This document shows positions 5,596-50,970 of a stretch of DNA of 64,000 nucleotides, piece after piece; positions within the stretch are counted from its first letter, which is position 1, and the number at the start of each line of letters is the position of its first letter. The notes under the pieces were generated by a model. That model saw only the letters and a program-made list of their open reading frames with translations, made no database searches and was not told where the DNA came from. The translations under genes were made by a program, and so were the position numbers. The stretch is from the NCBI GenBank assembly GCA_016184225.1, contig JACPDA010000004.1, positions 208,372-272,371 on the forward strand, in the 5' to 3' direction. This DNA comes from Candidatus Daviesbacteria bacterium. GTDB taxonomy: Bacteria; Patescibacteriota; Microgenomatia; Daviesbacterales; UBA10151.

Positions 5596-5672
5596 AAGAG
5601 TCTAGAATCGAGAATCTAGAGTCAAGGGAAGAAATTAATTTCCCAGACTCTTGACTCTAGCGACTAGTCACT
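5596..5672 (+). repeat. Heptamer array (N)AGAGTC x4 (5596-5628) plus complementary 20-nt box GACTCTAGCGACTAGTCACT (5653-5672) ending 4 nt before the pnp ATG; hairpin-forming intergenic element
   Basis: AGAGTC/GACTCT are reverse complements; same two-part element recurs at 43315-43424, 46605-46690 and 50906-50970. Confidence 0.6.
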
Positions 5673-5676
5673 ATTT

Positions 5677-8043
5677 ATGCATAAAGTTATTACCAAAGAA
5701 ATCGACCTTAATGGTCGAAAACTAAAATTAGAAACAGGTAAACTGGCTCTGCAAGCAGATGCATCTGTGGTGGTTTCATGGGGAGAAACAGTCATTTTAG
5801 CAACTGTGGCCACGCAACCTTTGGCTGAAGATATTGGTTATTTTCCTCTTTCTGTAGAATATGTGGAAAAACACTATGCCGGCGGCCGAATCTCCTCTTC
5901 CAGGTTTATCAAAAGAGAAACTAAACCGACAGATGAGGCTGTGTTAACCGGTAGGTTAATCGACCGCTCCATTCGTCCCCTTTTCCCCAAAGAGTTTAAA
6001 AATAACGAAGTGCAGGTGATTCTAACGGTTTTATCTGTTGATCAGGCTAATGATCCGGATATTGTCGGTTTAATCGGGGCTTCAACTGCACTGTCTATTT
6101 CATCTGTGCCTTGGGACGGGCCGATTGCCGGAGTGCGGGTAGGAGAAAAAGAAGGGAAACTGATGGTCAACCCCACCATGGAAGAGATGGAGAAATTGAA
6201 TATGGATCTTTTGGTAGCGTGCGGTAGCGAAAAAGTAGTCATGATAGAAACTGCCAGTAAGCAAGTTGACGAAAAAATAGTCTTTGCCGGAATTAAAGAA
6301 GCCCACACCGCAGTAGCGCCAATAATTGTTTTAATAGAGGAATTCGTTAAAGAAGCCGGTAAAGAAAAATTGCCCATTTCCCATTTGGCTGAGGAGATAG
6401 AGGAAGCTTTAATTTCCGAGGTGACAAAAATTACCAAAGAAAGAATTGAAGCAGCGCTTTTTGATAATGAGCATCCCTGGCATGAAGCCACCGGCGAGAG
6501 AATCAAGAAAGAACTGGTTCTTCAGTATGCAGAAACTTTAACCCCCCAAATCATTGCCGGAATTTTTGATAAAGTGGCTAAAGAAATTGTGCATGAGAGT
6601 GTTCTTGAGAAAGGTAAAAGGGTGGATGGCCGGGGCATGGATGAGATCAGGCCGCTTCAGATGGAAGTAGGAATTTTGCCTAGGACACACGGCAGCGCCC
6701 TATTTAACCGCGGGGATACGCAGGTTCTATCTGTCGTTACTTTAGGTGCTCCTTCCTTGAAGCAAACTCTGGACGGCATGGAAGGGGAGAGGGAAAAAAG
6801 GTTTATGCATCACTACAACATGGGTATTAATCCTTTTTCCGTGGGAGAAGTTAAAAGATTAGGTCCGCCCAACAGACGTGATATCGGTCACGGAGCGTTA
6901 GCTGAAAAAGCTATTTCCGCAGTTGTTCCTTCTGAAGAGAGTTTTCCTTATGCCATCAGAGTCGTATCTGAAGTCTTAGCAGCTAATGCTTCTACTTCAA
7001 TGGCTTCTGTTTGTGCTACTACTTTAGCCCTTCTAAATGCCGGAGTTCCACTTTTTGAGCCGGTGGCAGGTATTGCTTTGGGACTATTTTCAAATAAGAA
7101 AAAATTCCAGGTAGTGGCTGACATGAGGGCGGTTGAGGATTTTTATGGTGAGATGGATTTTAAGGTGGCCGGAACTAAAAACGGTATTACCGCTATCCAA
7201 ATGGATACCAAGCTTTCAGGACTCTCTTTTGAAATTATCGAGACTGCTTTGGAGATGGGGAAAAAAGCCAGACTGGAAATTTTGGAAAAGATGGCAACAG
7301 TTATGCCCAATGTCGGCCCTCTTTCACCATATGCTCCCAGAGTGGAAACATTGCATATTAAACCGGAAGAGATCGGGCTTTTGATCGGGCCGGGCGGCAA
7401 GAATATTAATGCCATTATCGGAAGAACCGGGGCCCAAATTGATATTGAAGATGACGGGACAGTGATGGTGTCCGGAACAGATTCCAGTGGGGTAGATAAA
7501 GCCATTGCGGAAATCGAAGGCATGTTTAAAACCGTTAATGTCGGGGATGAGTTCACCGGAAAAGTGGTCAGACTCGTACCTTTCGGGGCTTTTGTGGAGA
7601 TTGCTCCTGGTAAAGACGGATTAGTTCATATTTCCCAAATGGCACCGGGCCATGTGGAGCAGGCAGAAGATGTGGTGTCTGAAGGACAAGAAGTGAAAGT
7701 TCGGGTAACCGATGTTTCACCTGATGGAAAAGTCGGATTATCAATGCTTTTTGGGGCGGATATTAAGCCTGAATCAGAAGGACGTCCTTCTGGTGGAGGC
7801 TTCAGGCCAAGAAGCGGGGGATTTAGGCCAAGACCTTCTTTTGGGGATAGACCCAGATCATCAAGTGGTGGCTATAGATCAGGTGGATTTGGCGGAGAAA
7901 GAAGCAGTGGTCCAAGACGCCCCTTTGGAGACAGACCACGAAGTGGTGGTTTTGACAGAGGTGGATCCGGGAGGTCAGGTGGATTCGACAGAGGCCGTGG
8001 CGGTGGACGAGACCGTGGTGGCCGCGGTGGATTTAACAGATAA
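5677..8043 (+). CDS. pnp: Polynucleotide phosphorylase (PNPase) with about 90-aa RGG/RG-rich C-terminal tail
   Basis: Two RNase PH domains, KH and S1 motifs; tail GGFRPRSGGFRPRP..GRGGGRDRGGRGGFNR; rpsO-pnp synteny. Confidence 0.9.
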   Translation: MHKVITKEIDLNGRKLKLETGKLALQADASVVVSWGETVILATVATQPLAEDIGYFPLSVEYVEKHYAGGRISSSRFIKRETKPTDEAVLTGRLIDRSIRPLFPKEFKNNEVQVILTVLSVDQANDPDIVGLIGASTALSISSVPWDGPIAGVRVGEKEGKLMVNPTMEEMEKLNMDLLVACGSEKVVMIETASKQVDEKIVFAGIKEAHTAVAPIIVLIEEFVKEAGKEKLPISHLAEEIEEALISEVTKITKERIEAALFDNEHPWHEATGERIKKELVLQYAETLTPQIIAGIFDKVAKEIVHESVLEKGKRVDGRGMDEIRPLQMEVGILPRTHGSALFNRGDTQVLSVVTLGAPSLKQTLDGMEGEREKRFMHHYNMGINPFSVGEVKRLGPPNRRDIGHGALAEKAISAVVPSEESFPYAIRVVSEVLAANASTSMASVCATTLALLNAGVPLFEPVAGIALGLFSNKKKFQVVADMRAVEDFYGEMDFKVAGTKNGITAIQMDTKLSGLSFEIIETALEMGKKARLEILEKMATVMPNVGPLSPYAPRVETLHIKPEEIGLLIGPGGKNINAIIGRTGAQIDIEDDGTVMVSGTDSSGVDKAIAEIEGMFKTVNVGDEFTGKVVRLVPFGAFVEIAPGKDGLVHISQMAPGHVEQAEDVVSEGQEVKVRVTDVSPDGKVGLSMLFGADIKPESEGRPSGGGFRPRSGGFRPRPSFGDRPRSSSGGYRSGGFGGERSSGPRRPFGDRPRSGGFDRGGSGRSGGFDRGRGGGRDRGGRGGFNR

Positions 8044-8098
8044 ACTATTGATTATCCTCTTGGGAAATTGTGAGCTATAAGGTAAAATAGGTAGCAGG

Positions 8099-9133
8099 AT
8101 GGATTCTGCCCGGGTCAGTGTTGAACAGTTAAAAATAAAAATTTCTCAAGCGGGTCTTCCCAAAGAAATTGAAGAGAAGCTTCTTAACATTCTGCAATTT
8201 AGTGGTCCGCCAACTGGCGGAGGTGCAGAGCTGGCCAGCTTAATTTCTTATGTGGAATTTGTCCTTGCCCTGCCGTTTAACAAGTATTCCCAGGATATTC
8301 TAGATATCAACCGGACTAAACAAATCCTGGATAAAAACCACTATGGTTTGCAATCAGTTAAAGACCGGATTTTGGAATATTTATCAGTGTTGATTTTACA
8401 CAAACAAAGCGGCCAGGAAAACGACTTTCATGCACCAATACTGGCGTTTATCGGTTTAGTGGGAACCGGTAAAACTTCCCTGGCTTACTCAATAGCAGAA
8501 AGTCTGGGACGGCCACTCATAAGGATTCCCTTTGGCGGCTTGGGAGACCCGGCCAGTTTACGCGGTCAATCCAGGCTTAGACCGGACAGTGAACCAGGGC
8601 AAATCATCAAAGCCATCCAGGCTGCCAAAGTTTCAAGTCCTGTTATACTGTTAGATGAAATAGATAGGGTGGCAGTTGAACATAGGGTGGATATTATGGG
8701 GGTATTGGTAGAGCTTTTAGATCCTGCTCAAAATCAGGCCTTTCTGGATCACTACTTAGATTTCCCATACGACCTATCACAGGTGTTATTTATTGCCACT
8801 GCCAATAATACCGGTAACATTGCCACAGCAGTTTTAGACAGACTTGAGCCAATTGTGATGCCTTCTTACTCAGACGGCGAAAAGCTGGTAATTGGCAGGG
8901 ATTATCTGTTGCCTAAAACTTTGAAAGAATCAGGTGTTGATCCAGGCTCATTGACTATTGATCAGACAACCTGGCCTCAGATTCTGCGGCCTTTAGGCTT
9001 TGATTCAGGAATTAGGTCCCTGTCACGTTCATTACAAACTATTTGCAGAAAAGTGGCCAGGAAAAAAGTGGAAGGAGAAGTCGGGCCATTTAGGATTACA
9101 GGCGAGAACCTAGGAGAGTACTTGGGAGGATGA
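8099..9133 (+). CDS. Lon-family AAA+ ATPase module only (no N-terminal LAN domain, no protease domain)
   Basis: Collinear with Lon residues about 230-600: DKNHYGL..VKDRILEYL, Walker A GLVGTGKTS, Walker B ILLDEID, sensor region ..LLDRLE..; ORF ends where the Lon protease domain would begin. Confidence 0.7.
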   Translation: MDSARVSVEQLKIKISQAGLPKEIEEKLLNILQFSGPPTGGGAELASLISYVEFVLALPFNKYSQDILDINRTKQILDKNHYGLQSVKDRILEYLSVLILHKQSGQENDFHAPILAFIGLVGTGKTSLAYSIAESLGRPLIRIPFGGLGDPASLRGQSRLRPDSEPGQIIKAIQAAKVSSPVILLDEIDRVAVEHRVDIMGVLVELLDPAQNQAFLDHYLDFPYDLSQVLFIATANNTGNIATAVLDRLEPIVMPSYSDGEKLVIGRDYLLPKTLKESGVDPGSLTIDQTTWPQILRPLGFDSGIRSLSRSLQTICRKVARKKVEGEVGPFRITGENLGEYLGG

Positions 9134-9216
9134 GATAAGGGATATTGGGATATAAAGATATTACGAGAAAAACCACTTAATATCCTAGTATCATAATATC
9201 CTATCTCGATTCATTT

Positions 9217-10935: not shown

Positions 10936-10947
10936 ACCCATAGTCTA

Positions 10948-10956
10948 TGGTATAAT
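10948..10956 (+). promoter_or_regulatory. Extended -10 (TGGTATAAT) placed so the TSS coincides with the ftsK ATG (leaderless)
   Basis: TATAAT 10951-10956, ATG at 10963. Confidence 0.5.
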
Positions 10957-10962
10957 TAAATT

Positions 10963-13062: not shown

Positions 13063-13087
13063 CTTTCATTATACTTCATGTACATTT

Positions 13088-13096
13088 GGTACAATT
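13088..13096 (+). promoter_or_regulatory. Extended -10 (TGGTACAAT), 6 nt before the tsaC ATG (leaderless)
   Basis: TACAAT 13091-13096, ATG at 13103. Confidence 0.45.
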
Positions 13097-13102
13097 GAGC
13101 GG

Positions 13103-13717
13103 ATGAAAGCGCTAGATTTAACTTTTGAAGACACAGATCAAATTATAAAGCCTTTAAAGGTTGGTGAAATCGGAGTGATACCGACGGATACTATTTATGG
13201 AATTGTCGGGTCGGCTCTCAATCCGAAAGCTGTTGAGAGAATCTACACATTACGAAAACGGGGAAAAGATAAACCTTTTATTATTTTAATTTCCTCTATT
13301 GATGATTTGAAAAATTTTGAAGTTAAGTTAACCAGAGAACAAAAAGATTTTCTGGAAAAAAACTGGCCCAACCCTTTAAGTGTTGTTTTATCAGTTAGGT
13401 CTGACAGATTTCAGTTTCTTCACAGAGGTAAAAATTCATTAGCCTTTAGGATGCCGAAAGATGAGAAATTATTGGAACTACTAAAACAGACCGGCCCCCT
13501 AGTTGCGCCTTCTGCCAATCTTGCAGGATTAAAACCGGTAGAGACAACAAAGGAGGCAAAAAAATATTTTGGCAGCAAGGTAGCTTTTTATCTGGATGGG
13601 GGAAAATTGAAGTCAAAACCATCAACGATTATTCAGTTATATGAAGATGGTACACAGATAATTTTAAGAAGAGGCAAAAGCAGGCCGGGTATTGCCGAAC
13701 GGACTGGTAGAGTCTGA
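13103..13717 (+). CDS. tsaC: L-threonylcarbamoyladenylate synthase (YrdC/Sua5 family)
   Basis: YrdC-like N-terminus TDTIYGIVGSALNPKAVERIYTLKRG..PFIILI. Confidence 0.8.
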   Translation: MKALDLTFEDTDQIIKPLKVGEIGVIPTDTIYGIVGSALNPKAVERIYTLRKRGKDKPFIILISSIDDLKNFEVKLTREQKDFLEKNWPNPLSVVLSVRSDRFQFLHRGKNSLAFRMPKDEKLLELLKQTGPLVAPSANLAGLKPVETTKEAKKYFGSKVAFYLDGGKLKSKPSTIIQLYEDGTQIILRRGKSRPGIAERTGRV

Positions 13718-14230: not shown

Positions 14231-14276
14231 TAGCTGTATCTTAAGAAGTTAATGTCTTTATGTCAACAGGTCATTT

Positions 14277-14285
14277 TGGTAAAAT
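14277..14285 (+). promoter_or_regulatory. Extended -10 (TGGTAAAAT), 6 nt before the ATG at 14292 (leaderless)
   Basis: TAAAAT 14280-14285. Confidence 0.45.
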
Positions 14286-20193: not shown

Positions 20194-20194
20194 A

Positions 20195-40048: not shown

Positions 40049-40785
40049 GTAATTTAAAGACTTTGCTTAAAAAACATTCCGGAAGGTCCTCTGGCGGAAT
40101 GGTGACTGTCAGAAGCCAGGGCGGCAGGCATAAAAGATATTATAGGGAGATTGATTTTAAGAGGGATAAATTTGGGGTTTCCGGTGAGGTAGTAGCTTTA
40201 GAATATGATCCAAATAGGAACGTGCAGATTGCCTTGGTTAAATATACAGACGGGGAGTATAGGTATATTTTAGCCCCAAAAGGGTTAGGGGTAAAAGATA
40301 AAGTGGTATCAGGAGAAAAGATTGAATCTAAGATAGGTAATGCCATGAGGCTTAAAAATATTACAGTCGGGACACTAGTGCATAACGTAGAACTCTCGCC
40401 TGGTAAGGGCGGACAGATCGGTCGGAGTGCCGGAGTGGCTTTGCAGCTTTTGGCTAAAGAAGGCAGTTTTGCCCAGTTGAAAATGCCCTCAGGTGAGATT
40501 AGAATGGTGCCTCTTCAGTCTTTGGCGACAATCGGCAGTTTAGGGAATGAAGAAATAAGGCAACGGGTTATAGGAAAGGCCGGTAGGTCCCGCCATATGG
40601 GTATTAAGCCAAATGTTAGGGGTGTAGCCCAAGATCCTGATTCACATCCGCACGGCGGAGGAGAAGGCAGGTCTGGGATTGGACGTAAAACACCGATGAC
40701 CAAATACGGTCGGCCGGCTGTTGGTAAAACCAGAAATAGAAAGAAATGGACCAATAGATACATAATGAAAAGGAGAAAACCATAA
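40045..40785 (+). CDS. rplB: 50S ribosomal protein L2
   Basis: Conserved L2 sequence (..GRNN.GRITVRHRGGGHKR-like [18 protein letters not shown]..). Confidence 0.95.
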
Positions 40786-41066
40786 TGGGCAGGTCAACTA
40801 AAAAAGGTCCGTATATTGATGAAAAATTAATGAAAAAAGTGATGGCTCAAAAGACCGGTGCTAAAAACCCAATCAAAACTTGGGCCAGAAGGTCACAGAT
40901 CCCACCGGAATTTGTAGGACACACTTTTTTAGTCCACCAGGGCAAGAATTTTGTAACAGTGTTTGTGAGTGAGTCAATGGTTGGACATCGACTCGGGGAA
41001 TTTGCCCCAACAAGACTTTTTAGGAGCCATGGAAAGGTGACTGAGAAGAGTGTGGCCAAGACATAG
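40785..41066 (+). CDS. rpsS: 30S ribosomal protein S19
   Basis: [19 protein letters not shown].. Confidence 0.9.
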
Positions 41067-41168
41067 TTATTCGTCATTCCGAGGTCCGCCAAAGGCGGAC
41101 CGTGGGAATCTTGATTACAAGAAAGATTGCCACGTCGTTTCACTCCTCGCAATGACAGGAAGAAAATT

Positions 41169-41585
41169 ATGGAAATAACAACTATACAAAAATACATACA
41201 TACCAGCCCCCGGAAACTGAGATTAGTGACGGATATGGTTCGTAACATGGAACCAGCCAGGGCTTTAGCTGTTTTGGGTTTAACTCCGAAAGTTGCTGCT
41301 AAAGATTTGGGGAAAGCATTGAAGACGGTTTTAGCCAATGCAAAACAGAGAGGCTTGGATACTTCCAAACTAACTTTTAAAAAGGTGGAGATAAACGAAA
41401 GCATAAAAATGCGCCGCTTCAGGGCAGGCACTAAAGGCAGGGTTAGGCCATATAAGAGAAGAATGAGCCATATAAAGATAGTTTTAAGTGATGGGTTGGA
41501 TCAAGAGTCTAGAGTCAAGAGTCTAGAGTCAAGTAAGAATACAGAACAATCCAAAGAAAAGAAAGGAGAAAAGTCTGACAGCTGA
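41169..41585 (+). CDS. rplV: 50S ribosomal protein L22 with C-terminal tail encoded by a (N)AGAGTC heptamer array
   Basis: ..SPRKLRLVTDMVRNM.. L22 core; track ORF begins at an upstream TTG (41127), ATG at 41169 fits the L22 N-terminus better. Confidence 0.85.
   Translation: MEITTIQKYIHTSPRKLRLVTDMVRNMEPARALAVLGLTPKVAAKDLGKALKTVLANAKQRGLDTSKLTFKKVEINESIKMRRFRAGTKGRVRPYKRRMSHIKIVLSDGLDQESRVKSLESSKNTEQSKEKKGEKSDS
41503..41533 (+). repeat. (N)AGAGTC heptamer array x4 inside the rplV 3' end
   Basis: AAGAGTC TAGAGTC AAGAGTC TAGAGTC. Confidence 0.6.
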
Positions 41586-41610
41586 AAGCTGAAGACTGAT
41601 AGCTAATTTC

Positions 41611-42252
41611 ATGGGACAAAAGATACATCCGGTAGGTTTCAGAATGGGCATTGGGGCGACCTGGAAGTCTCGTTGGTTTGCTAGTGGAGTAAAGTATCAA
41701 CAATACTTGGCCGAGGATTTAAAAATCCGTAATCTTCTGATGAAGAAATTGCGGCCAGCAGGCATTGGTTCTATAGAAATAGAAAGAGCGGTAAATAAAT
41801 TAAAAGTAATAATCTATGTTTCTCGTCCGGGAGTTCTAATCGGACGCGGAGGGAGTGGTTTAACTGAAGTTAAAAAGTTTCTAATGAAGGAGCTTAAGAT
41901 TAAAGATGAGAATAGTTTAGAGATTGCCCCAATGGAATTAAAATCGGCTGACCTTTCAGCTTATCTTATTGCTCAATCTGTGGCAGAACAGCTTGCTCGT
42001 AGGCTTCCTGCACAAAGAGTAATGAATCAGGTAATCGAGAGGGCAATGAGGGCAGGCGCAAAAGGAGTAAGAATTGTTTTGTCCGGTAGGATTGGCGGAG
42101 CTGAAATTGCCAGGCGCGAGTGGAAGGCTGCCGGTACCATGCCTTTACATACGCTTCGGGCCGATATAGACTTTGTTGTTTATCCGGCACTTACAAAATC
42201 CGGGTATGTTGGGGTGAAGGTGTGGATTAACAAAGGAGAGGTAGAAATATAG
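41611..42252 (+). CDS. rpsC: 30S ribosomal protein S3
   Basis: KH-like N-terminal region; order L22-S3-L16. Confidence 0.9.
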   Translation: MGQKIHPVGFRMGIGATWKSRWFASGVKYQQYLAEDLKIRNLLMKKLRPAGIGSIEIERAVNKLKVIIYVSRPGVLIGRGGSGLTEVKKFLMKELKIKDENSLEIAPMELKSADLSAYLIAQSVAEQLARRLPAQRVMNQVIERAMRAGAKGVRIVLSGRIGGAEIARREWKAAGTMPLHTLRADIDFVVYPALTKSGYVGVKVWINKGEVEI

Positions 42253-42328
42253 TGCAAAGTGCAAAGGGAAAAGTGCAAAGTCAAAAAAAGACTTAGCACT
42301 TAGCACTATTCACTAATTACTAATTATT
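42253..42328 (+). repeat. Solo (cargo-less) copy of the inverted-repeat element that flanks the four-helix-bundle gene; (GTGCAAAG)x3 + CTTAGCACTTAGCACTATTCACT, hairpin-forming
   Basis: Left and right halves match the flanks at 36797-36826 and 37188-37220. Confidence 0.55.
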
Positions 42329-42739
42329 ATGGCATTACTGCAACCAAAAAGAATGAAACATAGAAAAGCCTTTAAGGGTAAAAGAGGCGGGGTAGCAACA
42401 CGGGGTAATAGTTTATCTTTTGGATCTTTTGGGCTAAAAGCTATGGAAGCAAGTTTTATTTCTGCAAGACAACTGGAGGCGGCAAGGCGGGCCATGGCCC
42501 ATTTTACCCAAAGAGGCGGACGTATTTGGATCAGGGTTTTTCCTGATAAGCCAATCACCAAACACCCGGCTGAGAGCCGGATGGGTTCAGGTAAAGGAGA
42601 TGTGGAGGGGTATGTGGCGGTAGTAAAACCCGGACAATTAATTTTTGAAATGGGAGCAGTATCTAAATTAATAGCAGAGGAAGCACTTAGGCTAGCTGCC
42701 CATAAGCTGCCGGTTGGTACTAAGTTTGTGGAGAAATAG
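42329..42739 (+). CDS. rplP: 50S ribosomal protein L16
   Basis: [17 protein letters not shown].. Confidence 0.9.
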
Positions 42740-42743
42740 ATTT

Positions 42744-43016
42744 ATGAAAAAACAAGAATTTATACAGATTAAAGGATTAGATTTAAAAGAACTTAATATT
42801 AAAGCGAAGGCTTTAAAAGATGAAATCGCAAGTCTGACTCTGGATAAAAATATGAAAAAATTAAAGGATTTTAAAATGGTTTCAAAAAAGAAAAAAGAGT
42901 TGGCCCAAATCTTGACTGTTATTAGACAGAAAGAACTTTTGGGACAGTTGGAATCGCAGGTAAAACACAAAGAGTCTAATGAAGAAGTATCAAAAGTAAA
43001 AAAGGAGAAAAAATAA
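42744..43016 (+). CDS. rpmC: 50S ribosomal protein L29 with K/E-rich C-terminal tail
   Basis: Start at internal ATG of the track ORF (MKKQEFIQIKGLDLKELN..), matches the L29 N-terminus. Confidence 0.75.
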   Translation: MKKQEFIQIKGLDLKELNIKAKALKDEIASLTLDKNMKKLKDFKMVSKKKKELAQILTVIRQKELLGQLESQVKHKESNEEVSKVKKEKK

Positions 43017-43406
43017 ATGATTGGTAGAGTTGTTTCAACAAAAATGAATAATACGGCAACGGTTTTGGTAGAAAGAGAAGCAAGGAATCCTTTATACAAA
43101 AAAACTTATGTTCAGACTAAGAAGTATTTGGTGGATACGATAGTTACGGTGAAAGATGGAGACATGGTGGAGATTGTAAAGGTAAGACCGGTTTCTAAAA
43201 ATAAACACTGGAAGGTTGTTAAAGTGGTAGGGAAAGATTTGGAGGCAATCACTGAGGAGAAATTGAAGGCCGCAGCGGAGCAGACGATTGCCGAAGTGAT
43301 GCCGGAGGAGAAAGAAGAGTCTAGAGTCGAGAATCAAGAGTCAAGTAAAGAAGTATCAAAAAAAGAAAAAGTATCAAAAGCAAGAAAGGAGAAAACTAGT
43401 CACTAG
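43017..43406 (+). CDS. rpsQ: 30S ribosomal protein S17 with C-terminal tail encoded by the heptamer array
   Basis: MIGRVVSTKMNNTATVLVER.. Confidence 0.85.
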   Translation: MIGRVVSTKMNNTATVLVEREARNPLYKKTYVQTKKYLVDTIVTVKDGDMVEIVKVRPVSKNKHWKVVKVVGKDLEAITEEKLKAAAEQTIAEVMPEEKEESRVENQESSKEVSKKEKVSKARKEKTSH

Positions 43407-43424
43407 ACTCTAGCGACTAGACAC
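43315..43424 (+). repeat. (N)AGAGTC heptamer array (43315-43346) and complementary box GACTCTAGCGACTAGACACT (43405-43424) ending 6 nt before the rplN ATG
   Basis: Same two-part architecture as at 5596-5672. Confidence 0.6.
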
Positions 43425-43430
43425 TAACTA

Positions 43431-43799
43431 ATGGTACAGCACAGATCAAGACTGACAGTTGCAGACAACAGCGGTGCCAAATCAATTATGGTGATTCAAC
43501 CTTTGGGGGGTTCGGGTAAAAGAAAGGCCAGTTTAGGACAATTGGTTGTGGCGGTTGTCAAAGGAGCGGATCCAAATGGACAGGTGAAAAATCACGAAAT
43601 AATAAAAGTTGTGATCGTCCGGACTAAAAAAGAGGTCAGGCGCGATGATGGTTCATACATTAAATTTGATGATAATGCCGGAGTGGTAGTAGATAATGAT
43701 GGGAACTTGCGGGCCACCCGTATTTTTGGCCCGATTGCCAGAGAAATTAGGGATGCCGGATATACGAAAATTATTTCTTTAGCACAGGAGGTTTGGTAG
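43431..43799 (+). CDS. rplN: 50S ribosomal protein L14
   Basis: MVQHRSRLTVADNSGAK.. Confidence 0.95.
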   Translation: MVQHRSRLTVADNSGAKSIMVIQPLGGSGKRKASLGQLVVAVVKGADPNGQVKNHEIIKVVIVRTKKEVRRDDGSYIKFDDNAGVVVDNDGNLRATRIFGPIAREIRDAGYTKIISLAQEVW

Positions 43800-43815
43800 T
43801 TCGACTACGCTCACT

Positions 43816-44136
43816 ATGAAAATTAAAAAGGGAGACAAAGTGAAGGTGTTGCTTGGTAAAGACAGAGGCAAAGAAGGCAAGGTAGTGTTTGTCTTGGCTA
43901 AGGCTGGCAAGGTATTCGTTGAGGGAGCTAATCTTTATAAGAGGCATGTTAAAAAGCAAGGGCAGATGGAGGGCGGGATTATTGACATCCCCAAACCATT
44001 TAATGTTTCTAATGTAGCGTTGATATGCTCTAATTGTAAAAAGGTTGCCCGAATAGGTTATATGATGGCTGGAAATGAGAAAATGAGAATTTGTCGAAAG
44101 TGCAAAAAGGAGATCAAAACAGATGCAAAGGCTTAA
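43816..44136 (+). CDS. rplX: 50S ribosomal protein L24 with C-terminal C4 zinc-ribbon extension
   Basis: MKIKKGDKVKVL..; CSNC..CRKC tail. Confidence 0.85.
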   Translation: MKIKKGDKVKVLLGKDRGKEGKVVFVLAKAGKVFVEGANLYKRHVKKQGQMEGGIIDIPKPFNVSNVALICSNCKKVARIGYMMAGNEKMRICRKCKKEIKTDAKA

Positions 44137-44680
44137 AGAAAAATATATGAACGAAGTACGACAGAAGTTGCAGGGGAGCTTGCAGTTAAAAAATAAACTA
44201 GCAGTTCCGCGCCTTAAAAAAATTGTGATCAGTATTGGTTTGGGTGAGGCAAAGGATAACGCCGGTATCTTGGATAAAGTAAAAGTTTATTTTACCCAGC
44301 TTGGAGGGCAAGTCCCTGTTGTCACAAAGGCTAAAAAATCTATTGCCTCTTTTAAAGTTAGTAAGGGTCAACCTATTGGGATGATGATGACTTTAAGAGG
44401 TGAGAGAATGTATGCCTTTTTGGACAAGTTAATTAATATAGCTTTACCGAAGGTGAGGGATTTTAGAGGAATATCTCAAGACTCCTTTGACGCTCAAGGA
44501 AATTTAAATATTGGTTTGAAGGAACAAACTATTTTTCCGGAGGTTGATTACAAGAGTGTGGACAAAACCAGGGGTTTGGCAGTAACTATTACAACGAGTG
44601 CAAGAAATAGGGGCGGTCACACCGCTAAAGAGGAAGGAAAGGAATTATTAGGAGCCTTAGGGTTTCCTTTTAGGAGTTAA
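44123..44680 (+). CDS. rplE: 50S ribosomal protein L5
   Basis: Conserved L5 blocks. Confidence 0.9.
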   Translation: MQRLKEKYMNEVRQKLQGSLQLKNKLAVPRLKKIVISIGLGEAKDNAGILDKVKVYFTQLGGQVPVVTKAKKSIASFKVSKGQPIGMMMTLRGERMYAFLDKLINIALPKVRDFRGISQDSFDAQGNLNIGLKEQTIFPEVDYKSVDKTRGLAVTITTSARNRGGHTAKEEGKELLGALGFPFRS

Positions 44681-44683
44681 ATT

Positions 44684-44863
44684 ATGGCTAAGGTGAGTAA
44701 TATTGTCAAGAAAAAGTTTAAATATGAAGTTCAACAGAAAAACCGTTGTATGAAGTGTGGTCGGTCTCGGGCATATCTTAGTAAATTTGGTTTGTGTAGA
44801 CTTTGTTTTAGAGAATTAGCACATCTGGGGTTACTCCCGGGAGTGAAGAAAGCGAGTTGGTAA
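44684..44863 (+). CDS. rpsN: 30S ribosomal protein S14 type Z (59 aa, zinc-binding); not in the ORF track because it is under 60 aa
   Basis: [59 protein letters not shown]. Confidence 0.8.
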
Positions 44864-44865
44864 TT

Positions 44866-45240
44866 ATGGACCCTGTGGGTGACGCATTAATCAGATTAAA
44901 AAACGGTTATTCGGTTGGCAAGGTCGAAGTTTACTTGAATTTTTCTAAACTGGTTTGGAACCTTGTCAAGTTACTACAAAAGGAAGGATATCTCTCCGAA
45001 GTTAAACAGGATAAAAGAGAAATAATACTTACACTAAAATATAATTCCAGGATTCCGGTTTTAACTGATGTTAAGAGAGTCTCGAAGCCCTCTCTCAGGG
45101 TTTACAAAGGGGTTAAAGATTTACCATGGGTTTTGAATGGGTTAGGCGTAGCTGTTATTTCAACACCTAAAGGCTTGATGACTGACAAGCAGGCACGTAA
45201 ACTCAAAGTAGGAGGGGAGGTCCTGGCATTAGTCTGGTAA
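44866..45240 (+). CDS. rpsH: 30S ribosomal protein S8
   Basis: MDPVGDALIRLKNG..; ATG at 44866 preferred over the track TTG at 44857. Confidence 0.9.
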   Translation: MDPVGDALIRLKNGYSVGKVEVYLNFSKLVWNLVKLLQKEGYLSEVKQDKREIILTLKYNSRIPVLTDVKRVSKPSLRVYKGVKDLPWVLNGLGVAVISTPKGLMTDKQARKLKVGGEVLALVW

Positions 45241-45246
45241 AAATCT

Positions 45247-45816
45247 ATGTCTAGAATTGGAAATGCACCGATCATAATACCTACAGGAGTAACAGTTGAA
45301 AAAGACGGTAAGACAGTCAGCGTAACAGGGCCAAAGGGAATTTTGAAACTTGAGGTGGACCCGAGTATTTCAGTAGAGATTGAGGGTGGTCAAGTTATTA
45401 TTAAAAGGAAAAATGATGAGAAAAAAATTAGGGCATTACATGGTTTAACCAGAAGCCTGCTTGCCAATATGGTAGTGGGGGTGACTAATTCCTGGAGTAA
45501 AGATTTGGAACTGATAGGAGTAGGGTTTCGAGCACAGGTTAGCGGAGAAAAGATGATCTTAAACGTTGGATATTCTCACCCGGTGGAAATTACCGCACCG
45601 GCCGGAATAAGTTTTGAGGTTTCGGATAATACTAAGATTAAAGTAATGGGAATAGATAAACAGCTGGTTGGTCAAACTGCTGCCAATATTAAGAAAGTCA
45701 GAGTCCCTGATGTTTATAAGGGTAAAGGAATAAGATATGAGGGCGAGTATATCAGAAAGAAAGTCGGGAAAAGTGCAAAAGTAGGAGTTGCAGCGGGAGG
45801 TGCAGGAGGAAAGTAG
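45247..45816 (+). CDS. rplF: 50S ribosomal protein L6
   Basis: MSRIGNAPIIIP.. Confidence 0.9.
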   Translation: MSRIGNAPIIIPTGVTVEKDGKTVSVTGPKGILKLEVDPSISVEIEGGQVIIKRKNDEKKIRALHGLTRSLLANMVVGVTNSWSKDLELIGVGFRAQVSGEKMILNVGYSHPVEITAPAGISFEVSDNTKIKVMGIDKQLVGQTAANIKKVRVPDVYKGKGIRYEGEYIRKKVGKSAKVGVAAGGAGGK

Positions 45817-45828
45817 GTATAGAGTATT

Positions 45829-46161
45829 ATGTATAAAGCATCAAGGGTAAGCAAACATCAAAAAATTAGAAAGAAGATCATTGGAACTAAAGACAAACCT
45901 AGGCTGGCGGTGTTTCGTTCTGGACAACACATCTATGCTCAGATTATTGATGATAGTCAAAGTAAGACTTTGGTTGCAGCTTCTGACCTAAAAGAAAATG
46001 GTACCAAAAAAGAAAGGGCATTAAAAGTGGGTAAAAGCTTGGCAGAAAGGGCATTAAAGCATAAAATAACAGTAGTTGTTTTTGACAGGGGTGGCTTTCT
46101 GTATCAAGGCAGGATAGCAGAAATTGCTAAAGGAGCCAGGGAAGGAGGACTGAAATTTTAA
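45829..46161 (+). CDS. rplR: 50S ribosomal protein L18
   Basis: ..[19 protein letters not shown].. Confidence 0.85.
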
Positions 46162-46664
46162 TGAATCCAGAAGTTCCGCAAGAAGAATACTTTGAAAGAG
46201 TAGTACAAGTTAACAGAGTTTCAAAGAAAACTAAAGGTGGTGATAAAAGATCTTTGTCTGTGTTGGTAGTAGTGGGGGATAAAAAAGGCAAAGTGGGAGT
46301 GGGACTAGGTAAAGCGGCTGAAGTTCAATCCGCAGTGAGAAAAGCAACCAGTTATGCAAAAAAGCACTTAATAGAAGTTTCCTTAAAAGGAAGAACTATA
46401 CCACATCCAATTTTGGTGAAAAACGGAGCAGCCAAGGTGCTTCTTAAGCCGGCTCCTGTTGGTACAGGAGTAATTGCCGGAGGAGCAGTTAGGGTGGTAG
46501 TAGAAGCGGCAGGTATCCACGATATTGTTTCTAAAATCCTGGGTACTAAAAATCAGGCTTCGAATGTTTATGCCACTCTTGAGGCGCTGGGGAAACTCAA
46601 GAAGATAGAGTCGAGAGTCGAGAGTCAAGAGTCTAGACAGCAAGGCAAAAAGACTGGTTCCTAG
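46161..46664 (+). CDS. rpsE: 30S ribosomal protein S5 with heptamer-array-encoded C-terminal tail; followed directly by rplO (no L30 gene)
   Basis: S5 dsRBD-like N-terminus; tail ..[21 protein letters not shown]. Confidence 0.9.
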
Positions 46665-46690
46665 ATTCTAGACTCTAGCGACTAGCCACT
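46605..46690 (+). repeat. (N)AGAGTC heptamer array (46605-46638), spacer, and box GACTCTAGCGACTAGCCACT (46671-46690) ending 5 nt before the rplO ATG; 10-bp inverted repeat AGAGTCTAGA/TCTAGACTCT
   Basis: Direct reading of sequence. Confidence 0.6.
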
Positions 46691-46695
46691 ATTAT

Positions 46696-47130
46696 ATGAA
46701 ACTGCATGAATTATTAAAAGTTAAGACTAGATCTAAAAAAAGACTTGGACGTGGTTTAGGTTCTGGTAAAGGTAAGACTGGAGGAAGAGGTACCAAAGGT
46801 CAGAAAGCAAGAGGTACCATCCCCGTTACTTTTACTGGGAATCTTCCTCTCTACAAAAAATTACCTTTGAGGAGAGGGAAAGGTAATCCCAAAGGCTCCA
46901 CGAAACTTAAACTAATTAATATCAGCAAATTAAAGGCTTTTAAAGCAAAAGAAGTTGTGGATATAGGTAAACTACAAGAGACAAAGATTATTTCTAAAAG
47001 GGAAGCAAAAAGGGGTGTCAAAATTTTAGGAAAAGGAGAAATAAATCAAGTTTTAACTATTAAACTTCCTATGTCGGATTCTGCCCGTAAGAAAATTGAA
47101 AAGGCGGGTGGGAAGGCGATAGATGTCTAA
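46696..47130 (+). CDS. rplO: 50S ribosomal protein L15
   Basis: ..[22 protein letters not shown].. Confidence 0.85.
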
Positions 47131-48418
47131 CATATTATCCCCAATTATTAATGCTTTTAAGATAGCCGAGCTGAGAAGAAAAATCCTTATCACGACAATT
47201 TTGGTAATAATTTTTAGAATTACCGCCCATATCCCTGTTTCTGGAGTAGATTTGGCAGGACTTCAACAACTTTTCTCATCCAATCAATTTTTGGGACTTT
47301 TGGATATTTTCTCAGGAGGAACTCTTGCTAATTTTTCTATTATTTCTTTGGGCCTTAATCCTTACATTAATGCTTCTATAATATTCCAGCTTCTAACTAT
47401 GATCAGTCCGAAACTGGAAGCCCTCTCTAAAGAAGGCGAGATGGGGAGGCAAATAATCAATCAATATACAAGATATTTAACTGTGCCGCTTGCGCTTTTG
47501 CAAGCAATAGGTATGTTTGTGCTGCTTAAAAATCAAGGGATCATTACTCAAATTAATCCTCTTCAGATTGCCTCAATTATTGTAGGTATGACTGCAGGAA
47601 CCATTTTCTTAATGTGGATTGGAGAGCTGATTACAGAGTATGGCATTGGTAATGGGATATCACTTTTAATTTTTGCAGGAATTGTTTCGAGGGTCCCTGT
47701 TGTTTTAACACAAACAGCTTCAGTTGTAGATCAAACACAACTGATAAATATTATCATCTTTACAGTACTATCGATTTTAGTAGTGGCGGGAGTAGTTTTC
47801 ATTAACGAAGGAAGAAGACAGATTACTGTCCAGTATGCAAGAAGATTCACAGGAGGGAGAGTGGGGGGAACGGGTGCCCAGACTTATCTGCCGCTGCGGG
47901 TTAACCAAGCTGGAGTAATTCCGATTATTTTTGCGGTCTCTTTAGTGTTGGTTCCATCTTTTGCAGGGTCGTATCTGGCAGGTTTACCTCAACCACAACT
48001 TGCTTCTCTAGGCAAAATTTTGGCCACAAATTTTAATCCCGGAAGCTTAGTCTATAATTTAGTATATTTTCTCCTGGTGGTAGGTTTTACCTTTTTCTAT
48101 ACGGCCGTGATTTTTAACCCTACAAAAGTAGCCGATGAAATTAAAAAATACGGAGGATTTATCCCGGGGATACGACCGGGTACCCAGAGTGCCTCTTTCT
48201 TAAATTATATTATGGTGAGAATTACTCTGGCAGGGGCCATATTTTTAGGTGCCATTGCAGTTTTACCTTCAATTGCATCTTCCCTGACAGGAATCCAAAC
48301 TTTAGTTTTGGGAGGAACAGGTCTTCTAATCGTTGTTTCAGTGATCTTAGATACGGCTAAACAATTTGAGAGTAAGTTAATTGAAAGAAGTTATGAAGTG
48401 TTTGCAAGAAGAGGCTAA
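47123..48418 (+). CDS. secY: Preprotein translocase subunit SecY
   Basis: 10 TM topology, conserved SecY blocks. Confidence 0.9.
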
Positions 48419-48452
48419 ATGGAAGTCTAATGCATATAGTATAATTTAGTAT

Positions 48453-49100
48453 ATGGAAACAGTTCCACCTCCTAACATTGAAACTCTGAAACAACCTACA
48501 AAGGCACAACTCTTTGAACATCTATTCCCGGGAAACAAATTTAAGGATCTATCTCCTTTTAATCCGCTCAATATACCGAGTATATTAAGGTGGATTTATT
48601 TTAAAGATAGGGTTATAGATATTAGCAAAGCGTTTCATGTTCAACAAGGATATGCGGATAGGTCTGATTTTCAGCACCTCGATCAATTATCAGTTGCACT
48701 TGAATTTTTAAATCCGATTGCTATTGTGAAAGAGAATCCTTTAAGATTCAAAGGGTGGGTCGCTGACTTATTAAAAGATGGAGAACAACTGGGAGGGCTC
48801 GCAGTTCAACAATACCAGTATGTACCTCAAGAAAGACTTGATGCATATGCGCGCAGTACTTTAGAGCCTAAAGCATTTGTTGATTGGGTCAAGCATGGAT
48901 TTAGAAACTCAGATGAGGCGGAAGAATATTTAAGAAGCTTTTATGAGTCTGTATCTGTAAAAGTTATTGGTATTTTAGGATCTGATGGGAAACCAAATGG
49001 GTTAATTAGATTCATTGAGGGTCCGAGACCAAGAAATGGAGAAAGGGTAAAAAGCCCGAGCCTAGTCGGTAACTTGGTTGCTACGAGCGTGAAAATATAA
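48453..49100 (+). CDS. Hypothetical protein (215 aa) inserted between secY and adk
   Basis: ORF with -10 TATAAT (48440-48445) 7 nt upstream; no recognised domain. Confidence 0.45.
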   Translation: METVPPPNIETLKQPTKAQLFEHLFPGNKFKDLSPFNPLNIPSILRWIYFKDRVIDISKAFHVQQGYADRSDFQHLDQLSVALEFLNPIAIVKENPLRFKGWVADLLKDGEQLGGLAVQQYQYVPQERLDAYARSTLEPKAFVDWVKHGFRNSDEAEEYLRSFYESVSVKVIGILGSDGKPNGLIRFIEGPRPRNGERVKSPSLVGNLVATSVKI

Positions 49101-49308
49101 TCCCCATTTCAGACAAATATATAACGCCGTGGTATAAATGTCTTTTAAACTTAAGCGCCGGTGGTTGATTTGCCGTCTTGCCTGACTCTTCTGACCATTT
49201 CTGACAAGTTCATCCCTAGACGAATTTTCTGATCACCGGACATTTGAGAATATCTTTTTAAGATGAAAGAAATTAGCTTTTTCATGCTTCCTATGTTAGC
49301 ACAACTCC

Positions 49309-49317
49309 TGATATAAT
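49309..49317 (+). promoter_or_regulatory. Extended -10 TGATATAAT, 6 nt before the adk ATG (leaderless)
   Basis: TATAAT 49312-49317, ATG 49324. Confidence 0.5.
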
Positions 49318-49323
49318 GGCAGA

Positions 49324-49848
49324 ATGAAAATACTCTTGATTGGGCCGCAAGGATCGGGTAAATCAACGCAAGCTACTCTTTTGGCAGAGCATTTAGGTCT
49401 GCCAAAAATTACGATAGGAGATCTCTTTCGTCAAATAGCAGATTCGGATTCTGAAGAGGGGAAAAGGATCAAACAGATTTTGGACTGCGGTCAATTAGTG
49501 GATGATCAAACTACAGCTGAACTAGTTAAAAAAAGAGTTAGCGAAGAAGATGTTAAGAATGGTTTTATTTTGGATGGTTATCCCAGGACTATAGAACAAG
49601 TAAATATCTTTGAACCGGATTTAGATAAGGTGATTTATCTAAATGTTCCCCGGGAGGAAGTGGTTCAAAGGCTTCTGCAAAGAGGCAGAGCGGATGATAC
49701 TGCTTTACTTATTAATAAACGTCTGGATTTGTATTATCAGCAAACACAGCCTTTACTAGATCATTATAAGCAGCAAGGTACTTTGGTTGAGGTTGATGGG
49801 GTAGGAGATATACAAAGGATTCAGGATGAGATCAGAAAGCAAGTTTAA
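49324..49848 (+). CDS. adk: Adenylate kinase (short LID form)
   Basis: MKILLIGPQGSGKSTQA P-loop. Confidence 0.85.
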   Translation: MKILLIGPQGSGKSTQATLLAEHLGLPKITIGDLFRQIADSDSEEGKRIKQILDCGQLVDDQTTAELVKKRVSEEDVKNGFILDGYPRTIEQVNIFEPDLDKVIYLNVPREEVVQRLLQRGRADDTALLINKRLDLYYQQTQPLLDHYKQQGTLVEVDGVGDIQRIQDEIRKQV

Positions 49849-49850
49849 GG

Positions 49851-50612
49851 ATGAAAGTAAGAAACGTTTGCGAGCAAGACTTGATGAGAAAATCAGGTGT
49901 GATTGCTGCGAAAGCTTTAAAGCGGGCGACAGAAGCAATTAAAGTTGGTGTAACAGAGCTTGAGGTTGATAAAATTGTAACGCAGGAGATTTATAAGCAG
50001 GGTGGGGATTTATCTTATAAAAGCGTACCGGGTTATAAATATGCCACTTGCATTACGGTAAATGAGCAGGTGGTACATGGAATACCTACAGATAGAAAAT
50101 TTGAAAGCGGTGATGTAGTAAGTGTGGATCTGGCGGTTGTGTATAAAGGTTGGCATACAGATTGTGCTTGGAGTGTATTAGTAAGTGGACAGGGTACAGG
50201 CGACAGTGGACAGTTGGAAAAGACAAAATTCTTAAAAGCTGGAGAGGAGGCTTTATGGGATGGGGTAGCGCAGGCAATAGACGGGAATAGGGTGGGGGAT
50301 ATTTCATCAGCTATTCAAGAGAGAATTGAGAAAAATGGATATAGTGTGGTAAGAAGTTTAGTTGGACACGGGGTCGGCAGGAGCTTGCATGAGGATCCGG
50401 AAATACCGGGATTTGGAGAAGCAGGAAAGGGGCCAGTATTAAAAAGCGGGATGAGCTTGGCTATTGAAGTGATCTACACATCAGGATTGCCGGATGTGGT
50501 ATTAGAAAAAGATGGGTGGACTTTCTCGTCTGCTGATAAGTCGCTCGGGGGATTATTTGAGATGACAGTAATTGTCGGGAAAAAGGAGCCTAAAGTATTA
50601 ACCCATTGGTAA
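49851..50612 (+). CDS. map: Methionine aminopeptidase type I; contains in-frame CAGGCGACAGTGGACAGT mini-repeat (50196-50214)
   Basis: Pita-bread fold metal ligands in conserved blocks (..DLAVVYKGWHTDCA.., ..HGVGRSLHEDP..). Confidence 0.9.
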   Translation: MKVRNVCEQDLMRKSGVIAAKALKRATEAIKVGVTELEVDKIVTQEIYKQGGDLSYKSVPGYKYATCITVNEQVVHGIPTDRKFESGDVVSVDLAVVYKGWHTDCAWSVLVSGQGTGDSGQLEKTKFLKAGEEALWDGVAQAIDGNRVGDISSAIQERIEKNGYSVVRSLVGHGVGRSLHEDPEIPGFGEAGKGPVLKSGMSLAIEVIYTSGLPDVVLEKDGWTFSSADKSLGGLFEMTVIVGKKEPKVLTHW

Positions 50613-50666
50613 TTCTATGGGTTGTAATATGAAGCTAATTCTGATAAAATGCTTTAGCTTTAAATT

Positions 50667-50909
50667 ATGATAAAAGATGTTATTGAAGTTGAAGGTAAAG
50701 TTAAAAAAGTTTTACCCAATACGTTATTTAGGGTGGAGATTGATCAAAGCAGCGATGTGCCGGAACTCTTGGGGAGGATCATTTTATGTCATATCTCAGG
50801 TAAAATGAGAATGCACTATATCAGGCTTTTAGAAGGCGATAGGGTGAGGATAGAGATGAGTCCGAGGTATGATTTGGATAAGGGGAGGATTACGTTTAGG
50901 CTCAAATAG
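50667..50909 (+). CDS. infA: Translation initiation factor IF-1
   Basis: S1-like OB fold sequence, 80 aa. Confidence 0.9.
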
Positions 50910-50970
50910 AGTCAAGAGTCTAGTGACTAGAGTCTAGGAAAAAATAACTTGACTCTAGCGACTGGTCACT
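50906..50970 (+). repeat. (N)AGAGTC heptamer array (50906-50938) and box GACTCTAGCGACTGGTCACT (50951-50970) ending 6 nt before the rpmJ ATG
   Basis: TAGAGTCAAG pairs with CTTGACTCTA. Confidence 0.6.

Follow-up and report, generated by a model that had tools for sequence, protein, structure and literature searches.

The 64,000-nucleotide (nt) stretch of Candidatus Daviesbacteria DNA analyzed here (contig JACPDA010000004.1, positions 208,372 to 272,371; henceforth the window) contains nusA-infB, rpsO-pnp, the gene for RNase J, rpoBC and the S10-spc-alpha ribosomal-protein cluster. Four of its gene junctions carry a two-part element: a tandem array of about four (N)AGAGTC heptamers and, downstream of it, a 20-nt box, GACTCTAGCGACTRGNCACT, that lies directly in front of a start codon. 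A preliminary description had placed this box before pnp, rplN, rplO and rpmJ and ascribed to the pair of motifs a lineage-specific role in RNA processing or translation. All four copies were found, on the + strand at 5653-5672, 43406-43425, 46671-46690 and 50951-50970 with 0-1 mismatch each, and none occurred in 100 shuffles; the second copy lies one base away from the position first given for it (43405-43424), and the other three coordinates were exact. The distances from the box to the respective ATGs (5677, 43431, 46696 and 50977) are 4, 5, 5 and 6 nt, as originally claimed. Pfam identifies the downstream genes as those for PNPase, L15 and L36 and the upstream genes as those for S15, S5 and IF1; the identities of S17 and L14 were also confirmed. 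The two motifs form the core of two arms, a distal one made of the array and an ATG-proximal one that includes the box:

5597..5626, + strand: distal arm of the pnp module, AGAGTCT AGAATCG AGAATCT AGAGTC AAG, untranslated, in the pnp 5' leader
5646..5676, + strand: ATG-proximal arm of the pnp module, GACTCTT GACTCTA GCGACTA GTCACTA TTT, including the box; pnp ATG at 5677
43316..43343, + strand: distal arm of the S17/L14 module, translated as the S17 C-terminal tail EESRVENQESS
43344..43395, + strand: S17/L14 spacer, A/G-rich and T-poor; its 3' end is AAAGGAG, which resembles a Shine-Dalgarno motif (GGAG at 43388-43391, 39 nt upstream of the ATG)
43396..43430, + strand: proximal arm of the S17/L14 module, CTAGTCA CTAGACT CTAGCGA CTAGACA CTAACTA, including the box and the S17 stop codon (43404-43406); rplN ATG at 43431
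46607..46638, + strand: distal arm of the S5/L15 module, translated as the S5 tail
46661..46695, + strand: proximal arm of the S5/L15 module, CTAGATT CTAGACT CTAGCGA CTAGCCA CTATTAT, including the S5 stop codon (46662-46664) and the box; rplO ATG at 46696
50907..50937, + strand: distal arm of the infA/rpmJ module, TAGAGTCAAGAGTCTAGTGACTAGAGTCTAG, beginning at the infA stop codon
50948..50976, + strand: proximal arm of the infA/rpmJ module, CTTGACT CTAGCGA CTGGTCA CTAATTAT, including the box; rpmJ ATG at 50977

The arrays themselves, of ~4 units each as described, occupy 5597-5623, 43316-43343, 46607-46634 and 50908-50935, leaving gaps of 29, 62, 36 and 15 nt to the box at the pnp, S17/L14, S5/L15 and infA/rpmJ loci, respectively. 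They are complementary to the 5' part of the box, which has a 7-nt period of its own (CTAGNNN, three to four times). The stem originally proposed for 46630-46680 is borne out, with AGAGTCTAGA (46628-46637) being the exact reverse complement of TCTAGACTCT (46667-46676); the S5/L15 hairpin has a predicted energy of -31.7 kcal/mol and a folding z score of -3.6, and the related locus L032 has an identical arm variant at its own S5/L15 junction. The claim that every locus folds into a long stem holds for three of the four (z -2.5 to -3.6); at S17/L14 (z -0.8) the minimum-energy fold is a local hairpin within the box, CUAGUC-N-CUAG-ACU-CUAG-C-GACUAG. The most conserved part of the box is CGACTAGNCACT, the portion that has no complementarity to the AGAGTC repeats.

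The modules leave traces in the proteins encoded upstream of them. An upstream open reading frame (ORF) often continues through the purine arm, which is poor in stops, and through the T-poor spacer to end in the proximal arm, where stop codons are present in all frames, and this running-on accounts for the tails of L22, S17 and S5. Since a 7-nt array encodes one 7-residue repeat whichever frame is read, the tails of L22, S17, S5, RecX and GrpE all resemble ESRVESQ. In orthologues these tails are variable or absent, and from their sequence they look like read-through by-products. That the arrays are translated at the ends of L22, S17 and S5 had been noted before; at L22, however, the array is followed by an arm of another family, AGTCTGACAGCTGAAAGCTGAAGACTGATAGCTAATTTC, and not by the box.

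At the start codons themselves, the sequence shows that the cassettes displace the native Shine-Dalgarno motif to 35-90 nt from the ATG, with the ~90-nt extreme at the S3/L16 junction. The boxed starts lack a Shine-Dalgarno motif, and its canonical core was found at 10/52 starts preceded by periodic heptamers vs 361/916 other starts. Many further starts in the window are preceded by a hexamer resembling a -10 box, in many cases with a TG in front of it, that ends 6-9 nt before the ATG, again without a Shine-Dalgarno motif (examples: 10963, 13103, 14292, 30157, 35612, 48453, 49324 and 59945). The sequence thus points to frequent leaderless or nearly leaderless mRNAs in the host organism, which appears able to use short leaders free of Shine-Dalgarno motifs.

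For a view beyond the window, a search with the L14 protein gave 36 related ribosomal-protein loci (L007-L042; best match 95% identical), and an exact-pattern scan for the box gave 30 loci on metagenome contigs; together with the window, these two sets yielded 43 unique box copies. With 0-3 mismatches and at 0-10 nt from the ATG, the box precedes the genes for L13, S3, S17, L14, L23, L22, S14 and L15 in different Daviesbacteria, and its metagenome copies precede those for S3, S17, L14, pnp, dnaK, grpE, lon and gyrB as well as an AdoHcy-hydrolase-like gene, mevalonate-pathway genes and small membrane proteins. It adjoins an ATG (0-10 nt; mode 4-5 nt) in 33/43 copies, a count made up of 32 automatic assignments and the rpmJ copy, added by hand because its 38-residue ORF fell under the length cut-off of the script. 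Stops in all three frames occur in 40/43 copies, and an upstream ORF of at least 80 codons enters the module in 20/43. An inverted partner array (at least 2 AGARTC units within 140 nt) lies near 28/43 copies; among the other 15, at least 5 have their partner arm ~380 nt away, beyond a gene of the PF05635 family. A few copies (L094, L110) have the opposite orientation, such that the complement of the AGAGTC arm adjoins the ATG of a gene on the opposite strand, and every copy is located within a protein-coding gene or between two of them.

Candidatus Daviesbacteria contain at least five families of arm sequences with one common layout: a purine-rich heptamer arm, a T-poor spacer that often ends in AAAGGAG, a complementary arm with a TAG, TGA or TAA codon every 7 nt, CTAAYTT and the ATG. 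At orthologous junctions most genomes have a plain succession of Shine-Dalgarno motif, stop codon and ATG, and the others have a cassette. The S3/L16 junction illustrates this: in most species it is "empty", with the Shine-Dalgarno motif inside the last S3 codons followed by TAAT and the ATG, and among the other species it is occupied by at least 7 different cassettes. The box recurs in sister genomes, but in a patchy manner, preceding different genes across Daviesbacteria and missing at most orthologous junctions. The idea of a module tied to four homologous loci does not survive this comparison; what stands of it is a lineage-specific, two-armed element with real hairpin potential in front of start codons, not a dedicated four-locus set. 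The feature is real and larger than the four-locus description. As a separate observation, some junctions carry a palindromic element without heptamers, TGGACRATTC ... GAATYGTCCA followed by AAAAATA and the ATG (in L038, L007 at the S3 junction, L011 at S8, L021 at S17 and L019 at L13).

The origin of the modules is illuminated by a gene within the window itself, in a cassette that retains a coding loop:

36797..37226, + strand: full-length cassette (430 nt) between tuf and rpsJ; rpsJ ATG at 37227

Its first arm, AGAGTGCAAAGTGATAAGTGCAAAG (36797-36838), and its complementary second arm, CTTAAGCACTTATCACTATTCACTTAGCACTTTAAAACT (37183-37226), which adjoins the rpsJ ATG, resemble a third arm family found at S3/L16. 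The ORF at 36807-37187 encodes a PF05635 protein (23S rRNA intervening-sequence protein, "four helix bundle protein"; E 3.6e-27). The gene order tuf-PF05635-rpsJ recurs in the relatives L117 and L118, whose proteins are 79% and 55% identical, respectively. Arms of the box family likewise flank PF05635 genes in L089, L090, L108 and L109, with arm 1 ~380 nt upstream of the box; the layout is TAGAGTCAAGAATCGAGAGTCAAGAGTCTAGA, the PF05635 ATG, its TGA stop inside ccacTTGACTCTAGACTCTAGCGACTAGTCACT, and the next ATG. L087 represents the same site with its PF05635 gene half deleted, and the short modules of L092 and L100 keep its last codons, ATCCAYTTGA. The four flagged copies have no ORF in the loop. 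Because full-length, half-deleted and codon-retaining copies share the same arms, the short modules are best read as ORF-less derivatives; judged by their sequence, the flagged copies would be derivatives of an intervening-sequence (IVS)-type element and not full members of it. On this best reading, the AGAGTC array and the box are the left and right terminal inverted repeats, respectively, of miniature, ORF-less IVS-type copies.

The association between PF05635 genes and inverted arrays extends further. We compiled 14 PF05635 loci, homologues of the window protein from relatives, a Portnoybacteria contig, the alphaproteobacterium Tianweitania and other contigs. Inverted short-period arrays flank 14/14 of them, most with a 7-8-nt period, and an arm-matching score of at least 20 was reached at 14/14 vs 16/496 control genes (Mann-Whitney p 9e-11). 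In the sampled loci, arm 1 adjoins the ATG of the PF05635 gene itself, ending 0-5 nt before it in L090, L108, L109, L118 and L119, and arm 2 usually adjoins the ATG of the next gene. L123 (Tianweitania sp., 1380-2000) has 8-nt units, GGCGAATA and GGGCAGTA upstream and TACTGCCC and TATTGCCT downstream. L119 and L120 encode an identical PF05635 protein, and their arrays differ by one 7-nt unit. Closely related PF05635 proteins go with AGTGNNN-type units and distant ones with other units. Two PF05635 genes outside the Candidate Phyla Radiation (CPR), in L124 and L126, were likewise seen to be flanked by inverted short-period arrays. The PF05635 protein is distantly related to bAvd, the accessory protein of diversity-generating retroelements; we know of no mobilizing activity of PF05635.

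Several comparisons bear on how the cassettes move and change. L019 contains an exact 164-nt duplicate, from TAGAGTC to CACTAA (first arm-1 unit to box end), that occupies both its L29/S17 and its S17/L14 junction. In L095 (~4940-5060, - strand), a complete AGAGTC/box module interrupts dnaX without disturbing its reading frame; it lies between the conserved motifs NC and PCNKC and adds ~29 residues, and a change of one CTAG to CTCG keeps the frame open. Comparison of the rpsO-pnp spacers of the window and L102 shows 37/38 and 19/20 identical positions in the arms, as against an identity of only ~80-85%, estimated visually from the alignment, in the adjacent coding DNA; the loop sequences have drifted apart, and an indel of one 7-nt unit (cccagac) distinguishes the two copies of arm 2. 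Across 980 junctions, matched arms with a score of at least 20 were found at 50 vs 10 in permuted pairings, and with a score of at least 24 at 18 vs 0. Copies with an arm-1 array have a mean folding z of -2.7, with z < -2 in 20/28. In Candidatus Daviesbacteria, cassettes are gained, lost and copied as units. They also fragment short-read assemblies: six Logan contigs of the same strain (L001-L006), identical to the window and hence uninformative about strain-level hypervariability, end exactly at heptamer arrays (41571/41580 and 46635). The organism is present in the DNA runs SRR12113419 to SRR12113429, from groundwater.

Taken together, we consider it reasonably probable that box and AGAGTC array are the arms of ORF-less, IVS-type palindromic elements in mRNA operons, with a stem that RNase III could plausibly cleave. 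In the full-length element, the stop codon of a gene A is followed by arm 1, by the ATG of a PF05635 gene of ~120 codons filling the loop, by arm 2 and by the ATG of a gene B, with each arm consisting of at most ~5 units of 7 nt. Internal deletion reduces this arrangement to arm 1, a short spacer and arm 2, and the cassettes are inserted between a stop codon or Shine-Dalgarno motif and the next ATG. In the transcript, the two arms may pair as a stem that, by analogy with rRNA IVSs, would serve as an RNase III substrate. A cut would part the two cistrons, so that the downstream gene would retain a short leader, poor in G and devoid of a Shine-Dalgarno motif, from which an essential gene would be translated by de novo initiation or after processing. 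Such a cleavable stem and leader are plausible by analogy: the same arms around PF05635 genes reproduce the architecture of 23S rRNA IVSs, which are excised by RNase III, and thereby lend indirect support to the RNase III idea.

A number of observations weigh against this account. Most short copies have spacers without residual similarity to PF05635. A stem cut during read-through of the upstream ORF, which enters nearly half of the copies, would deprive that mRNA of its stop codon. Neither a consistent target-site duplication at filled vs empty sites nor a mobilizing enzyme was found, and selfish spread alone leaves the bias toward ATG-adjacent, gene-oriented placement (~80-88%) unexplained. 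A check for selection on RNA pairing was negative: arm mismatches comprise 26 G-U vs 40 A-C, without a sense-strand G-U excess, and the sense fold is more stable than the antisense fold in just 18/28 copies, which is not significant. RNA-level selection on pairing is therefore not supported, and the complementarity of the arms could be purely a property of the DNA.

The preliminary description had offered translational coupling or occlusion, in which ribosomes on arm 1 would melt the stem, unmask the downstream start and so equalize neighboring ribosomal proteins. Such a hairpin would fit the translation of arm 1 at the S17, S5 and L22 junctions, the entry of long upstream ORFs into 20 of the pooled copies, the scarcity of Shine-Dalgarno cores at periodic-heptamer starts and the pairing of several other families up to 3-12 nt before the ATG. 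Yet no ORF runs into 23/43 copies, among them those in the pnp leader and at infA/rpmJ and many from metagenomes, and pairing in the AGAGTC family stops ~18-19 nt short of the ATG, so that coupling fails as a general role. Most orthologous junctions also lack any module, the same arms surround an unrelated PF05635 gene and one copy lies inside dnaX. We regard a dedicated coupling hairpin as quite unlikely. In-place polymerase slippage, producing simple-sequence repeats and perhaps phase-variation switches, would involve no copying between loci at all. It is very unlikely given that the same imperfect 20-nt box stands at unrelated loci in genomes whose L14 proteins are 79-95% identical, that one duplicate is exact over 164 nt and that the arms come as matched inverted pairs; moreover, arrays are capped near 5 units without a tail, and identical arrays were recovered from several samples. 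What speaks for slippage is that period 7 is by far the commonest tandem class in 909 kb of Daviesbacteria DNA (203 arrays, vs 33 of period 6 and 50 of period 8) and that one-unit differences separate the window from L102 and L119 from L120. Heptanucleotide repeats are also the most abundant class of long simple-sequence repeats in many bacteria, according to Mrazek 2007 as cited in PMC4679880.

More specific is the proposal that the 7-nt units form a platform for an oligomeric nucleic-acid-binding protein that would control translation or processing by binding beside the ATG; the best candidate would be the pentameric PF05635 protein of the full-length copies, with one subunit per repeat, and cold-shock, S1 or HutP-like proteins would be alternatives. 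We judge it rather unlikely, although several findings point its way. The relatives of the window protein in the PDB, 2RLD and 2GSC, have five chains each, and S23p, the IVS-encoded protein, is a homopentameric toroid (PMC4990558). Copy numbers of period-7 arrays peak at 3.5-5.5 and exceed 5.5 in just 6/203; arm 1 adjoins the PF05635 ATG and arm 2 the next ATG at loci of several phyla; unit type tracks the relatedness of the PF05635 proteins; and the most conserved part of the box is the non-complementary one. A UAG-N4-UAG pattern may resemble the HutP site. Protein-binding sites have also been proposed for the analogous TAACTGA repeats (PMC4679880). Against this, the correlation between protein and unit could reflect common descent of whole elements, many different unit sequences coexist in one genome, with only one PF05635 gene in the window, and the authors of the Coxiella work consider S23p not expressed (PMC4990558). 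The fuller form of the idea, in which a PF05635 pentamer recognizes up to five 7-nt units, one per subunit, within a mobile system that targets translation starts, is unlikely. If it were true, ORF-less copies would be sites where PF05635 or RNase III sets the fate of an mRNA, initiation independent of a Shine-Dalgarno motif and nearly leaderless would be allowed at ribosomal-protein, pnp and chaperone operons, and IVSs, PF05635 and start-proximal heptamer repeats such as TAACTGA would share one function.

Several further candidates were rejected. Scans of 36500-51300 and 1-6000 for sigma-70 promoters and intrinsic terminators gave no excess over shuffles, and from the sole promoter-like match on a box (50949-50976) transcription would begin inside rpmJ. 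Rfam returned no match to the modules at gathering scores or E<=1, one tRNA being the only window match that reached its gathering score. A split Shine-Dalgarno motif moved near the start by a local hairpin, as in T4 gene 38, would still leave a spacing of ~14-16 nt; GGAG is nearby in just 18/43 copies, and the other families have no local fold. A phage origin was dismissed, as the box is absent from viral contigs.

Further cassettes and arrays in the window, all on the + strand, belong to the AGAGTC family or to other families:

189..264, + strand: module before nusA, (AGGCAAC)4 at 189-218 and complementary GTAGCCT AAAGCCT GTCGCCT GTAACCT AACTAAA at 228-264; ATG at 265
5503..5563, + strand: second-family palindrome in the rpsO-pnp spacer, GTAGTCATCAGCTATCAGTCGTC ... 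GACAGCTGAAGACTGAGAGCTAAT
41504..41610, + strand: L22/S3 module, composed of an AGAGTC arm within the tail of L22 and a second-family arm; rpsC ATG at 41611
42250..42328, + strand: S3/L16 module of the third family, (AGTGCAA)5 from the S3 stop codon; rplP ATG at 42329
61268-61295 and 61494-61513, + strand: two AGAGTC arrays in frame inside recX

The palindrome at 5503..5563 is missing from the orthologous L102 spacer and is therefore an insertion. In the L22/S3 module, the array at 41504-41530 (arm to 41533) is followed by an A-rich spacer with GGAG at 41565-41568 and by the complementary-type proximal arm (41573-41610), whose TGA codons recur at a 7-nt period; the L22 stop codon lies at 41583-41585. 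L012 has a CTAG box at its L22/S3 junction. The second arm of the S3/L16 module, ACTTAGC ACTTAGC ACTATTC ACTAATT ACTAATT ATT, stands directly before the rplP ATG; compared with the empty junctions that most relatives have, the module is an insertion. In recX (61005-61679), the arrays apparently lie before and between the RecX helical domains, and no box or complementary arm follows either of them. Tandem Repeats Finder located many further period-7 arrays in the window.

A few observations concern other parts of the window. In the pnp leader, a GC-rich hairpin, CCCGCCTGC...GCGGGCAGGG (5440-5483), is not found in the orthologous L102 spacer; the promoter-like TTGGGA-18-TATACT just upstream of it (5399-5428) is conserved there. 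The rpsJ-rplC spacer (37536-38098, ~560 nt) is unusually long and contains an ORF without a Pfam match (37552-37833) and, immediately in front of the rplC ATG, the inverted pair AGTGACT...GGTCACT. Before rpsM, an (AATTTAA)4.6 array (51099-51147), overlapped by a sub-threshold Rfam match to Alpha_RBS (E 0.13), is followed by a normal GGGGAGG Shine-Dalgarno motif. Two ORFs of 264 and 336 residues between infB and rpsO (3211-5053), an interval that holds rbfA and truB in many bacteria, have no Pfam match. Finally, rpsE is directly followed by rplO without an intervening rpmD, the gene for L30 (46161-47130); CPR genomes characteristically lack L30.

To our knowledge, IVS elements and S23p/PF05635 proteins have been treated as curiosities of rRNA genes, and in more than 30 years no function has been assigned to them. 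In the CPR lineage studied here, mRNA operons frequently contain the IVS design, at the starts of essential genes, where the cassettes displace Shine-Dalgarno motifs and lengthen ribosomal proteins. In practical terms, they create spurious C-terminal "extensions" in annotations of CPR ribosomal proteins and break short-read assemblies. In the literature that could be searched we found neither a statement of the rule that PF05635 genes carry inverted 7-8-nt arrays adjoining two starts nor a description of heptamer cassettes in Daviesbacteria or CPR bacteria.

Comparison with known systems places the modules closest to some and apart from others. The E. coli rpsO-pnp leader contains a hairpin that is cleaved by RNase III. 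The Daviesbacteria module likewise places a hairpin in the 5' leader of pnp, after rpsO and the promoter-like site; there is, however, no sequence or Rfam similarity between the two, and the element precedes dozens of unrelated genes and is therefore no pnp-specific autoregulatory site. Miniature inverted-repeat transposable elements (MITEs, such as Correia and ERIC), repetitive extragenic palindromes (REP), bacterial interspersed mosaic elements (BIME) and Rickettsia palindromic elements are short, non-autonomous inverted repeats copied to many sites, co-transcribed and able to form RNA hairpins. The cassettes resemble this class as discrete units with inverted ends at several sites, as the L019 duplicate and the pooled copies illustrate, and the in-frame copy inside dnaX parallels the Rickettsia elements. 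In contrast to the class, their arms are tandem heptamers, their parent encodes a four-helix-bundle protein and no recognized transposase, no consistent target-site duplication was seen, and they strongly prefer ATG-proximal sites and one orientation.

A second precedent is provided by direct repeats of the heptamer TAACTGA that Beggiatoaceae, cyanobacteria and Bacteroidetes have in front of start codons; these repeats precede pnp, fusA and ribosomal-protein genes, come with few Shine-Dalgarno motifs and have no known function (MacGregor 2015, PMC4679880). As in those repeats, 2-6 tandem, stop-containing 7-nt units lie within a few nt of the start, Shine-Dalgarno motifs are rare, and pnp and ribosomal-protein genes are preceded in operon-internal positions. 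The Daviesbacteria units, however, are CTAGNNN, CTGANAG, CTTAGCA and others, and they are mostly accompanied by an inverted partner array and by a conserved box that is not a repeat. A link to PF05635 cassettes is not reported for TAACTGA repeats; the association of PF05635 with arrays may also explain repeats of that type.

The closest likeness is to the IVSs of 23S rRNA genes. In Coxiella, the 23S IVS has terminal inverted repeats and an S23p ORF and is cleaved by RNase III; the ORF is preceded by 2-3 tandem heptamers whose number varies by strain, the 5' cut falls at the first repeat, and relatives of S23p are homopentameric four-helix bundles (PMC4990558). PF05635 ORFs also occur in insertions within the rRNA genes of CPR bacteria (PMC11270868). 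The cassettes share with the IVSs of Coxiella, Leptospira and others the inverted repeats, a stem of ~25-35 bp, a loop with room for a PF05635 gene, tandem heptamers immediately preceding the start of the ORF in numbers that vary between strains, a sporadic distribution like that of selfish DNA and a decaying ORF. They differ in lying between stop codon and ATG in mRNA operons instead of in helix 25 or 45 of 23S rRNA, in that the flagged copies are ORF-less, that many sequence families coexist and that the upstream gene often reads in. RNase III excises 23S IVSs and would be predicted to cleave the Daviesbacteria copies. IVS/S23p elements as such were already known; what is new is their location at mRNA junctions, mostly in ORF-less form.

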